From Escherichia phage JM10, in the sequence record PP400777: DNA of 64,000 nucleotides. One strand, given 5' to 3'. This document shows positions 22,274 through 37,037 of the stretch, piece after piece. The notes under the pieces were generated by a model. It worked only from the letters and a program-made list of their open reading frames with translations. It was not told the DNA's origin and searched no databases. The first letter of the stretch is position 1. Each line of letters opens with the position of its first letter. A program made the translations under genes and the position numbers.

Positions 22274-22486
22274 TTAATTTTGGCCAGTATTTATTTTTCG
22301 CCTTTGGACGGCCTTAACATCTGTGAGGTATTTTTCCAGCTTGCGCTTGCGTGTATAATCAGCTTTAGAACCAGTTTGACGGATATCCTCGTTTAAATGA
22401 GAAATAGAATGTCCTAATTCTCTTCGGATTTCATCCAATTGGGTTACAGTAAGATTACGAAGTTGTCTTTCGTTTAATTGCTGCAT
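22274..22486 (-). CDS. hypothetical protein (rI.1 position)
   Basis: 70-aa ORF between rI and tk. Confidence 0.5.
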
Positions 22487-22513
22487 ATATACCTCTTGGT
22501 TAGATATTAGTAT

Positions 22514-23095
22514 TTATAACAACCCTGTCAAATCATTCCAATGCTTCCGGCATAATGACACGTATCTATCGGTATCACCAATTTCAATTTGACTGCCATC
22601 TGTAATTGGAAGTCCGTCTTCCGTGACTCTAGCTACCATTGTGGCCTTTTTACCGCAATGACAGACACCTTTAAGTTCAACAAGCTTATCGGCAATAGCC
22701 ATTAATGCTTGAGAACCTTCAAATAGATTACCTTTAAAATCTGTTCGTAGTCCATATGCCATTACCGGCACATTGTATACGTCAACAATACGACTAAGTT
22801 GATACACCTTTTCAGTAGTTAAGAACTGAGCTTCGTCAACAAATACACAATGAATATCCTTTTGTGCTGCAGCCCATTTATAGAATTCAAAGATATCCAT
22901 GTCTTTTGTAATTATATTGGCATCCTGACGAATACCAATACGAGAGACTATTTCACCTTTTGAATCACGAGTATCAATAGCCGGTTTAAGAACTAATACA
23001 CCCATGCCACGTTCTTTATAGTTATGTGCGGCAGTAAGTAATGAAGCAGACTTACCGGCGTTCATAGCGGCATATGTAAAAATTAAACTAGCCAT
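22514..23095 (-). CDS. tk: thymidine kinase
   Basis: 193 aa; P-loop AAMNAGKS and C-terminal zinc cysteines. Confidence 0.9.
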   Translation of the reverse strand: MASLIFTYAAMNAGKSASLLTAAHNYKERGMGVLVLKPAIDTRDSKGEIVSRIGIRQDANIITKDMDIFEFYKWAAAQKDIHCVFVDEAQFLTTEKVYQLSRIVDVYNVPVMAYGLRTDFKGNLFEGSQALMAIADKLVELKGVCHCGKKATMVARVTEDGLPITDGSQIEIGDTDRYVSLCRKHWNDLTGLL

Positions 23096-23104
23096 AAGAG
23101 TCCC

Positions 23105-23287
23105 TTATAGTGAATTCACGTAGTCAATGAGTTCTTGTTCTTTCCTGTCAAATGATTCCATCAATGCGTGATATTCTTCGTCCGTCAAAGGAGCATATTC
23201 ATCGTACGCATTGGTGGCTGCTTGTTCATCCAATAGGTCATGGATAAGTTCGAACAGTTTAGCTTTCTCTTCTTTAGTTAATTTCAT
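23105..23287 (-). CDS. hypothetical acidic protein
   Basis: 60-aa ORF. Confidence 0.4.
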   Translation of the reverse strand: MKLTKEEKAKLFELIHDLLDEQAATNAYDEYAPLTDEEYHALMESFDRKEQELIDYVNSL

Positions 23288-23778
23288 TTAGGTTCCAAAT
23301 CAACAATCACAATTTCTAGTTTAGTGGAATACGTATCTAAAATCTCTTCGATGACATCCCAGTTTCCACCACCAATACCTGCACCAATTCTTGGCATATA
23401 AATTACAGGCTTTGTTATCTTATTCTTTCCGAATTCATTTAATTCTATTATACAATTCATTAAAGCAGAGTACTCAAAATTAGGTCCCGGCTCAAACTGT
23501 GTATAAAGATTAAAGCAATAAGCTTTATGGGTCTTAAAATATTTTTCATAAACCGAATAAGACCCGAGTTTAGACTCATCTCCGAATTCGGTTTGAAGTT
23601 TATCGGCTTCCAGAATTTTTGGATAAGCCTTTGCTAATTGTCCTGCTACACCAGCGCCCATTGTATGAAAACAATTACACCCATGCGCAATATTATTACC
23701 TTTAGAAAACAGGGCGACAATATCGCCCTTGATATAGTTTTTAATCACTTGCTGCAAGTCCTCTAGTATAAGAGTCAA
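23284..23778 (-). CDS. macro-domain protein (ADP-ribose binding/processing fold)
   Basis: 164 aa; macro-like motifs NIAHGCNCFHTMGAGVAGQL and IYMPRIGAGIGGGNW. Confidence 0.6.
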   Translation of the reverse strand: MTLILEDLQQVIKNYIKGDIVALFSKGNNIAHGCNCFHTMGAGVAGQLAKAYPKILEADKLQTEFGDESKLGSYSVYEKYFKTHKAYCFNLYTQFEPGPNFEYSALMNCIIELNEFGKNKITKPVIYMPRIGAGIGGGNWDVIEEILDTYSTKLEIVIVDLEPK

Positions 23779-24088
23779 CTAGGCGGTCCACCATAGAATT
23801 GCATGCTGCCTTATCTTTAGGTTCCGCCACCGAGCATTCTAATATTTGCCATTTTTTATAGTATCTTTTAATTAAGGTAGACGCCTTGAACCTACTAGAC
23901 GCCCCATCTTTTTCTCCGTCTTTATACGCATATAACAATTTTTGTGAAAAATCTACTTTACACTCTTGACTTTTACCACAATAATCAGACGCCGTTCTGT
24001 TTGTATACTCCGTTACATCAGTATATGTAGTATTAGCAAGAGCGTTAAATGAAACCAAGCCAACTATTAAAGCCAACATTTTGGTCAT
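23741..24088 (-). CDS. secreted protein (signal peptide)
   Basis: 115 aa; N-terminal MTKMLALIVGLVSFNALA. Confidence 0.5.
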   Translation of the reverse strand: MTKMLALIVGLVSFNALANTTYTDVTEYTNRTASDYCGKSQECKVDFSQKLLYAYKDGEKDGASSRFKASTLIKRYYKKWQILECSVAEPKDKAACNSMVDRLVDSYTRGLAASD

Positions 24089-24627
24089 TCTTTTATTTCC
24101 AGTAGTTTATTTGATTTAAGGTAATTAGCCTTTTCTAGGACTTCAGAAGCATATTTACTTCCAGCACTTGTCTTCCATCCTGCATTATATGAGGATATAG
24201 CTTTTCTTATATCCCCGTTATGTATATTTAACCAATAAGAAAATTCGATATAAGCCCATCTGGCTGAATTAGACCGCTTAGATAGCATTTTCTTAATTTG
24301 GGCATCAGTCATATTATAACCAAGCTGGTTAATTCTTGCCCTCATTGTCGGTAGATAATTTTGGAACATTCCATACGCATGGTGACCTTTCTTATCTTTA
24401 AGATTAATACCGGCAGATGATTCCTGCCATAGTATTGCGGCCATTATGTATCCAAGTCCTTTCTTATGCATATTTTCATGCGTTTTAAATTTTCCGTCCT
24501 TAGAAAACTGTTCCCCAAACTGATAAGCATAATTCAAGTTATCGAGTTGGACATTACTAAAAGTATGCTCGGAGCTATGTGCTGATAATGAAAGAGCAAA
24601 TAGACCAGCGAGTAGTGCTTTTCTCAT
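24085..24627 (-). CDS. lytic transglycosylase-like secreted protein (vs.1-like)
   Basis: 180 aa; signal peptide; SLT-like motif WQESSAG…AYGMFQ. Confidence 0.6.
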   Translation of the reverse strand: MRKALLAGLFALSLSAHSSEHTFSNVQLDNLNYAYQFGEQFSKDGKFKTHENMHKKGLGYIMAAILWQESSAGINLKDKKGHHAYGMFQNYLPTMRARINQLGYNMTDAQIKKMLSKRSNSARWAYIEFSYWLNIHNGDIRKAISSYNAGWKTSAGSKYASEVLEKANYLKSNKLLEIKE

Positions 24628-24635
24628 GTTTACCT

Positions 24636-25094
24636 CTAGATTTTAATCACTGCTTTAGAAGCTTTTCCTGGTAGTCGTTTATTGTTAATAATAGCCATTC
24701 TGCATTGAAGAGACTTCATTTTGAATGCTGGATTTTCGCGACAAACTGTAAGTCCTAACCAAAGATTTCCATCAGTTATTTCTAAACGGCCTGGGCGATA
24801 TTCGACACCTTCGACAAAATCTTCATCAACATCTGGACGTGCCGGCATTGATAAAAATTCTGCAACTTCTTTAACATGATTTTTTACTTTATGAAATAAT
24901 TCAAAAACGTAATTCTCATCTATTTCTCTCTGGATGGCACGATCTAAGAGATGTTGAGAATACTTGATATGAAAGCCTGGTAGTCCAAGAGACTTTGCAG
25001 CATCTTTTATACTGGCATTTATTTTGCGGAACTCCGTTTCAAAGATTCGACGGAGTTTATTACGGCGGATAAAAACGTCTGAATTGATAGTCAT
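24636..25094 (-). CDS. regB: endoribonuclease RegB-like
   Basis: 152 aa; position and size match T4 regB and the sequence resembles my recollection of it. Confidence 0.7.
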   Translation of the reverse strand: MTINSDVFIRRNKLRRIFETEFRKINASIKDAAKSLGLPGFHIKYSQHLLDRAIQREIDENYVFELFHKVKNHVKEVAEFLSMPARPDVDEDFVEGVEYRPGRLEITDGNLWLGLTVCRENPAFKMKSLQCRMAIINNKRLPGKASKAVIKI

Positions 25095-25100
25095 TTTGAT

Positions 25101-25153
25101 TTCTCCTCTAGTTGACAGGTCTATAGTAACACAACTAGAGGAGAAGTAAACTA
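25101..25153 (-). promoter_or_regulatory. PeSL-like early promoter with 13-bp inverted repeat pairing the spacer to the RBS
   Basis: Minus strand GTTTAC-tTCTCCTCTAGTTGtgt-TACTAT-agacctgt-CAACTAGAGGAGAaatcaaaATG. Confidence 0.5.
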
Positions 25154-25155
25154 CT

Positions 25156-25371
25156 TTATTGATAAAATGGAGTTAAAGCCCAAGATTCTTTAGATACTAT
25201 ATTGGCGAAATGCCTCATCTCTTCGATTTGGCGACGACGCTGGTCAGCATAGTCTTCTTCGCCTTCTTCCTTACAATCTTCAAGGTCTTCTTCAAGATAC
25301 TTTAAGTATTCACTACAAATTTTGTTGACCTTTTCTTGAAAGTCCAATAACCCAGTAATAGTAGAAGCCAT
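25156..25371 (-). CDS. hypothetical acidic protein
   Basis: 71-aa ORF. Confidence 0.45.
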   Translation of the reverse strand: MASTITGLLDFQEKVNKICSEYLKYLEEDLEDCKEEGEEDYADQRRRQIEEMRHFANIVSKESWALTPFYQ

Positions 25372-36880: not shown

Positions 36881-36957
36881 TGGTCGAGGCAGAAGGATTC
36901 TAACCTTCAACCTACGGATTAGAAATCCGTTGCTCTATACAATTGAGCTATGCCTCG
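36881..36957 (-). tRNA. tRNA-Arg (anticodon UCU)
   Basis: Cloverleaf read by eye: acceptor CGAGGCA/TGCCTCG, D stem GCTC/GAGC, anticodon loop TTTCTAA, T arm GAAGG-TTAGAAT-CCTTC, CCA encoded. Confidence 0.8.
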
Positions 36958-36963
36958 AATATA

Positions 36964-37037
36964 TGACCCAGACCAGATTCGAACTGGTAACCTTTCCCTT
37001 ATGAGGGGACTGCTGCTAACCATTGAGCTACAGGGCC
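36964..37037 (-). tRNA. tRNA-Ile2/Met-like (anticodon CAU)
   Basis: Acceptor GGCCCTG/CTGGGTC, anticodon loop CTCATAA, T arm ACCAG-TTCGAAT-CTGGT; the D stem is imperfect as read. Confidence 0.6.

Follow-up and report, generated by a model that had tools for sequence, protein, structure and literature searches.

We identified, on the minus strand of a 64,000-nucleotide stretch of Escherichia phage JM10 (PP400777; this whole stretch is referred to as the window), a gene that by its sequence and position is the RB69-type orthologue of T4 tk.4, also named adfM (anti-DarT factor, macrodomain). Its product, Tk.4, is likely to be a functional AdfM which shields phage DNA from the toxin DarT2, most probably by hydrolysing thymidine-linked ADP-ribose without the catalytic lysine of DarG and TARG1. 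The gene is already annotated and the anti-DarTG2 function is already known for the T4 orthologue; because this point is in the literature for T4, the contribution of the window is one further orthologue only. What remains of interest is the absence of the catalytic lysine and the non-DarG ancestry of a very widespread clade of phage macrodomains.

The tk.4 locus and its start codon

The open reading frame of tk.4 is located at 23284..23778 on the minus strand of the window and would encode 164 amino acids if translation started at a TTG codon. The sequence-only reading, which gave no strand, had described a macro-domain protein with two glycine-rich motifs at this position, and both motifs are present: NIAHGCNCFHTMGAGVAGQL corresponds to residues 29-48 and IYMPRIGAGIGGGNW to residues 126-140 of the 164-aa frame. 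The gene had also been placed in the tk-regB interval. The gene order in the window and in RB69 is tk, tk.2, tk.4, vs, vs.1, regB, and Pfam searches recognized the neighbours as tk (TK), tk.2 (DUF7438) and regB (REGB_T4). Given this gene order and the profile evidence, both the domain and the interval named in the sequence-only reading are literally correct. In T4 the order is tk, tk.1-tk.3, tk.4, vs, vs.1, regB, and the phage of the window is without the tk.1 and tk.3 genes that T4 has between tk and tk.4. The tk-regB block of the window is 98.9% identical at the nucleotide level to that of Escherichia phage RB69, and the source of the window is an RB69-like Mosigvirus. In other Mosigvirus relatives (APCEc01, SA79RD, KAW3E185, JK45, and others) window positions 22400-25200 were matched in two pieces that span ~3215 bp compared to 2801 bp in the window, indicating an extra insertion of ~415 bp in the tk-regB block of these phages. 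The insertion brings additional genes annotated as 'hypothetical protein' and is missing from both the window and RB69.

The length of 164 amino acids given in the sequence-only reading holds for the open reading frame from TTG, but not for the likely coding sequence, which is 154 amino acids long. This coding sequence (23284..23748, minus strand) starts with GTG, ends with a TAA stop codon at 23284-23286 and has the same extent as the RefSeq coding sequence of RB69, in which tk.4 is annotated to start at the GTG corresponding to window position 23748, 10 codons downstream of the TTG at 23778. T4 tk.4 has an ATG at the position homologous to this GTG and an in-frame TAG directly 5' of it. In tblastn searches the homologues from Tequatrovirus and most other T4-like phages align from residue 11 of the 164-aa frame, and a few more distant homologues span residues 1-160. 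Together, the T4 start codon with its upstream stop, the RB69 annotation and the alignments that begin at residue 11 argue that the true start is probably the GTG at 23748, and the TTG start at 23778 was rejected on the same three grounds. From the comparison with T4 and RB69, the ten-codon extension between the two start codons (23749..23778, minus strand), which overlaps the 3' end of vs, is probably untranslated.

A Shine-Dalgarno-like GAGGA motif (23759..23763, minus strand), conserved in RB69 and T4, is present 10 nt 5' of the GTG within the end of vs and may serve as the ribosome binding site. The GTG of tk.4 overlaps the TAA of vs in GTGATTAA (23741..23748, minus strand), an arrangement typical of translational coupling. 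A promoter scan near tk.4 returned 12 sigma-70-like sites compared to 15.5 expected. Within the first 40 nt of the coding sequence lies a terminator-like hairpin, AGGGCGATATTGTCGCCCT (23729..23711, minus strand), followed by a T-rich tail. A stretch of 26 nt around this hairpin is identical in T4, at a dS between the two genes of ~1.2. As 72 of the 153 codons are changed and the identical run covers only 8 unchanged codons, this identity is not statistically unusual.

Assignment of Tk.4 to the macrodomain family

Tk.4 matches the Pfam Macro domain (PF01661) over profile positions 2-117 of 118 with 27.4 bits (E = 3.5e-6), above the curated gathering cut-off of 22 bits, and PHROG 335 ("phosphatase") with E = 3.7e-66. 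A sequence search against the PDB identified BT1257 (2FG1/2AFC) from Bacteroides (4e-11) and yeast Poa1p (6LFQ-U; 8e-9) as the closest solved relatives, followed by weaker matches to SCO6735 and to the macrodomains of TARG1 and DarG (~1e-3). An AlphaFold2 model, computed with 75 homologues as input, reached a mean pLDDT of 96 and a pTM of 0.91. A Foldseek search with this model returned 122 PDB matches at E ≤ 1e-3, and the best 50 of these 122 consist of macrodomains and of serine hydrolases that had been designed on the scaffold of a macrodomain. The best structural match is human TARG1/OARD1 (4J5Q-S; 2e-10), followed by Poa1p (1.8e-9), BT1257 (7e-8) and the DarG macrodomains (5M31/5M3E/5M3I, 7OMU; ~1e-7, TM ~0.75), which share the ALC1/TARG1-like macro fold. 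The macro-domain call made from the DNA letters is thus confirmed by the Pfam match above cut-off, the matches to solved macrodomains and a high-confidence model. By sequence profile and predicted structure, Tk.4 is a macrodomain of the TARG1/Poa1p/DarG class. RefSeq labels both the RB69 and the T4 protein "phosphatase; contains A1pp phosphatase motif" and many GenBank records name tk.4 "macro domain protein" or "Poa1p-like".

The T4 orthologue and its reported anti-DarTG2 function

The Tk.4 protein of RB69 (NP_861803.1) is 98% identical to the window protein, from which it differs by three substitutions (A32G, S63T, and L151W in 154-aa numbering), and its gene is placed identically with respect to the neighbouring genes. 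T4 Tk.4 is identical to the window protein at 129 of 153 positions (84%) without gaps (E = 8e-103). It is 155 instead of 154 amino acids long, its gene occupies the corresponding slot between tk.2/tk.3 and vs with the same start/stop overlap with vs, and it has every family-invariant residue of the window protein. The 24 amino acid differences between the two include MGAGVAG in the window protein vs. MGSGVAG in T4 and GIGGGNW vs. GIGKGNW, and the start codon is GTG in the window and ATG in T4. Comparison of the window gene with T4 tk.4 gave a dN of 0.088 and a dS of 1.22 (dN/dS ~0.07), and comparison with RB69 tk.4 a dN of 0.008 and a dS of 0.088. These values indicate strong purifying selection.

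DarTG2 is a toxin-antitoxin defence system that ADP-ribosylates phage DNA. According to the HIDEN-SEQ preprint of November 2025 (bioRxiv 10.1101/2025.11.20.689424), tk.4 was the sole significant hit of a screen with a T4 transposon library on E. coli cells that express DarTG2, and a clean tk.4 knockout of T4 was sensitised to DarTG2, upon which the gene was renamed adfM. In the screens described there, T4 tk.4 was not needed on plain E. coli K-12 and mattered only when DarTG2 was present. The functional evidence for T4 tk.4 is genetic and comes from this preprint, whose authors proposed that T4 AdfM removes ADP-ribose from DNA (bioRxiv 10.1101/2025.11.20.689424). An anti-defence activity against ADP-ribosylating host systems, which had been suggested from the window sequence, is in this way reported for an orthologue with 84% identity.

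T4 lacking AdfA and AdfN, both anti-DarTG1 factors, stays resistant to DarTG2, and the tested Tevenvirinae, RB69 among them, were described as 'all DarTG2 resistant' (Tevenvirinae and T4 data: PMC11257639). Phage T5 is sensitive to DarTG2 according to the preprint (bioRxiv 10.1101/2025.11.20.689424). A search of positions 1-100,000 of T5, whose sequence extends for another 21.7 kb, found neither a Tk.4-type nor a DarG-type macrodomain; as a small consistency check, T5 sensitivity without such a macrodomain in its first 100 kb fits the anti-DarTG2 role. The presence of tk.4 helps to explain the natural DarTG2 resistance of RB69- and T4-type phages and matters when the host range of T4-like phages for therapy is to be predicted.

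In the mechanism that we propose, Tk.4 would be expressed from the block of genes between tk and regB in the course of infection. Once thymidines in single-stranded phage DNA have been ADP-ribosylated by the host toxin DarT2, which blocks replication, the cleft of the Tk.4 macrodomain would bind the ADP-ribose adduct and the enzyme would hydrolyse the N-glycosidic bond between ribose and thymine, so that normal DNA would be restored and DarTG2 escaped. We infer this de-ADP-ribosylation of DNA by Tk.4; our literature search retrieved no biochemical work on Tk.4-type proteins, assays with ADP-ribose-1''-phosphate included.

A glutamine at the position of the catalytic lysine

Three conserved motifs of Tk.4 (154-aa numbering, all on the minus strand) were located by family alignment and hhalign. 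The first, HGCNCFHTMGAGVAG (aa 22-36; 23641..23685), contains Asn25 and the first Gly-rich loop, which is predicted to bind ADP-ribose and its phosphates. In an alignment of 75 family members G23, N25, G33, and A35 do not vary and H22, C26, M30, and G31 hardly do, and the region aligns to the 'VNTVGVMGKG' loop of DarG. The second motif is NLYTQ (aa 80-84; 23497..23511), in which N80, Y82, and Q84 are invariant in 75 diverse homologues. It pairs with NFPTK of DarG (probability 98.8%) and with YLITK of TARG1 (probability 98.3%; the TARG1 sequence used was checked against the PDB), which puts Gln84 at the position of DarG Lys80 and TARG1 Lys84, a placement in the cleft that comes from profile alignments and not from superposition. 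The third motif, PRIGAGIGGGNW (aa 119-130; 23359..23394), is the second Gly-rich loop and aligns to PRIGCGLDRLQW of TARG1 and PPLGAGNGGLPW of DarG. P119, I121, G122, and G124 are invariant among the 75 family members, and Gly126 is found at the site of TARG1 Asp125.

The residues for binding and catalysis, on which the sequence-only reading had made its claim conditional, are only in part present. The ADP-ribose-binding Asn and the pair of Gly-rich loops are conserved, but the catalytic Lys of DarG and TARG1 is not: by alignment, it is replaced in the Tk.4 family by an invariant Gln. Candidates for the active site are Asn25, Asp49, and Gln84, all of them invariant, and His22, which is nearly so. 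Lys80 of DarG was reported to be essential for turnover and its mutation inactivates DarG (PMC8120803), and TARG1, the other known reverser of thymidine ADP-ribosylation, has the same lysine (PMC8883491). If Tk.4 is a hydrolase, its chemistry should be unlike that of DarG, since this lysine is an invariant Gln in the whole Tk.4 clade.

Comparison of Tk.4 with DarG, TARG1, and PhiKZ AdfM

DarG counters the same toxin as Tk.4, and the two aligned with the high profile-profile probability (98.8%) given above. Differences were found in the motif FPTK of DarG, of which the catalytic Lys80 corresponds to the invariant Gln84, and in the domain organization: unlike DarG, Tk.4 consists of the macro domain only, without the C-terminal DarT-binding domain, and no darT gene adjoins tk.4, which has tk.2 and vs as neighbours. 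DarG models gave weak but real matches to Tk.4 (PADLOC DarG, 2.9e-8; NCBIfam DarG, 1.1e-7), and the NCBIfam DarG equivalog NF048014 scored 31.4 bits, below its cut-off of 250. By these comparisons Tk.4 is DarG-like in phenotype, yet outside the DarG family, as it shows none of the features that define it. In the same way, the catalytic dyad Lys84/Asp125 of TARG1 corresponds to Gln84/Gly126 in Tk.4.

The only phage macrodomain found in our literature search for which removal of DarT2-made ADP-ribose from DNA was shown biochemically is PhiKZ gp104. This stand-alone macrodomain strips the modification from DNA in vitro, was independently also named AdfM, and enters the phage nucleus by import; its motif VNVVGVMG has the corresponding Asn, and an N23A mutant is less active (PMC13309987). 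PhiKZ gp104 resembles Tk.4 in size, fold class, the conserved Asn and Gly loops, and in countering DarTG2. The two proteins share only ~25% identity, however, and PhiKZ gp104 is a true DarG-type macrodomain with the FPTK lysine, which matches DarG structures by sequence at 1e-24 compared to ~1e-3 for Tk.4.

Possible substrates and mode of action of Tk.4

Poa1p, the best solved sequence relative apart from BT1257, has the H-x-C-N-C motif of Tk.4 and, preceding the first Gly loop, a Ser/Thr ([ST]-x-G-x-G), with HSCNCNGSWGGG aligning on HGCNCFHTMGAG. The lysine of TARG1 and DarG is missing in Poa1p and BT1257, as it is in Tk.4. BT1257 is uncharacterised, and neither protein has been linked to DNA de-ADP-ribosylation or phage defence. 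Poa1p is the ADP-ribose-1''-phosphate phosphatase of tRNA-splicing metabolism (PMC8883491), and its similarity to Tk.4 (8e-9), including the common motifs, raises the alternative that Tk.4 acts mainly on small metabolites of ADP-ribose, for example ADP-ribose-1''-phosphate or O-acetyl-ADP-ribose, with the DarTG2 phenotype being secondary or indirect. The cellular relatives of Tk.4, which stand alone beside housekeeping genes, would fit such a metabolite-cleaning enzyme, and the label 'phosphatase' in RefSeq and PHROGs points the same way, although this label derives from the domain name only. It is not obvious how a metabolite hydrolase would rescue ADP-ribosylated DNA. Moreover, we know of nothing in a T4-type infection that would generate ADP-ribose-1''-phosphate. 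The sole phenotype of T4 tk.4 given in the preprint is specific to DarTG2, which modifies DNA (bioRxiv 10.1101/2025.11.20.689424), and we consider a metabolite as main substrate unlikely.

Slightly less likely still is protection without hydrolysis, in which Tk.4 would act as a reader or inhibitor that binds ADP-ribosylated DNA, free ADP-ribose or another NAD-derived ligand, or DarT2 itself. This would agree with intact binding loops in a protein that has neither the DarG/TARG1 Lys (Gln84) nor the TARG1 Asp (Gly126), with the reported inactivity of DarG K80 mutants (PMC8120803) and with the precedent of AdfA and AdfB, which were described as blocking DarT activity and not as reversing the modification (PMC11257639). 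Against it, the invariance of Asn25, Asp49, and Gln84 and the near invariance of His22 in both phage and cellular proteins resembles that of an active site more than that of a simple binding pocket, and Poa1p is an enzyme that, like Tk.4, has no such lysine (PMC8883491). To mask many DNA adducts stoichiometrically would presumably be costly as well.

The three ADP-ribosyltransferases Alt, ModA, and ModB that T4-type phages encode (PMC8120803) would make a phage-encoded eraser a logical partner, but the regulatory link to these enzymes suggested from the window sequence found no support, and reversal or tuning of their ADP-ribosylation or RNAylation by Tk.4 is very improbable since they modify arginine, a linkage which macrodomains are not known to cleave and of which the reversal is assigned to ARH1 (PMC8883491), and since tk.4 is dispensable on E. 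coli K-12 without DarTG2 according to the preprint (bioRxiv 10.1101/2025.11.20.689424), while the Tk.4 family itself extends over 2798 phage records from many genera.

Hydrolysis of thymidine-linked ADP-ribose by Tk.4 thus remains the reading that we favour. As the lysine is missing and Tk.4-type proteins are about ten times more common among phages than the DarG-type AdfM, a direct assay of the substrate range and chemistry of Tk.4 is worthwhile.

Distribution and origin of the Tk.4 clade

Homologues of Tk.4 were identified by tblastn in 2798 of 50,697 phage records. The phages that carry them belong to many genera and include Felixounavirus and phages of Pseudomonas, Vibrio, and Acinetobacter. 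The PhiKZ/DarG-type AdfM was found in 276 phage records. At least one jumbo phage, Serratia phage KpXa_1 (MN871449.1), encodes a Tk.4-type macrodomain with Gln as well as a PhiKZ/DarG-type macrodomain with Lys (173412-173864 and 295434-295754), and their presence in one phage suggests that the two types are not redundant.

Cellular relatives were searched in one genome per bacterial species, which yielded 364 relatives of Tk.4, of which 80 were kept. All 80 have Gln at the lysine position, within the motif N[ACGL]Y[TS]Q. Genuine chromosomal relatives with ~36-45% identity are present in Rhodobacterales, Desulfobacter, Verrucomicrobia, and other groups. Two homologues from metagenome-assembled genomes (P0107 and P0118) were rejected as bacterial, as both are on short phage-like contigs. 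To describe the neighbourhood of the cellular genes, 98 flanking genes on the same strand were scanned against Pfam. Most of the neighbours that recur have housekeeping functions, for instance aspartate-semialdehyde dehydrogenase, a class I tRNA synthetase and RNA polymerase, and DarT is absent among the 25 most frequent of the 79 families found in these 98 flanking genes.

With housekeeping neighbours, and with DarT not among the 25 commonest families, the Tk.4 clade does not have the appearance of an antitoxin orphaned from DarTG, unlike the PhiKZ-type AdfM and the NADAR-type AdfN. An orphan DarG antitoxin was accordingly considered and rejected as the origin of Tk.4 because of these neighbours and the Gln in 80 out of 80 relatives. 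It is possible, if somewhat less than probable, that the Tk.4-type AdfM represents a lysine-independent DNA (thymidine) ADP-ribosylglycohydrolase recruited not from DarG, but from the large NxYTQ clade with its mostly housekeeping context. If true, nature would have a second way to catalyse the reversal of base ADP-ribosylation, and this would hint that many cellular NxYTQ macrodomains, BT1257-like proteins included, repair ADP-ribosylated nucleic acids.

Two further observations concern the neighbourhood of these genes. NADAR domains, known as the other class of DNA ADP-ribosylglycohydrolases, are encoded by 3 of the 98 neighbours of the cellular NxYTQ macro genes (loci L005-L084). On a contig binned as Cetobacterium sp. 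(JBOGAE010000741.1; locus L004, 69-3159), which looks like a phage fragment, a Tk.4-type gene directly follows genes for a T4 Rnl1-type RNA ligase and a DUF4326 protein and is followed at its 3' side by a Dda-like helicase gene, which ties this macro gene to RNA-repair genes.

Other features of the window

The vs.1 gene (24085-24627, minus strand), annotated as 'hypothetical protein' in RB69, encodes a protein with a signal-peptide-like N-terminus. Its match to the Pfam SLT lytic-transglycosylase domain is below threshold (18.8 bits vs. a cut-off of 21.3), and motifs of the type E-S...GMFQ...YNAG are present. Further away in the window, ARAGORN and Rfam identified adjacent genes for tRNA-Arg(TCT) and tRNA-Met(CAT) at 36881-36957 and 36964-37037 on the minus strand.
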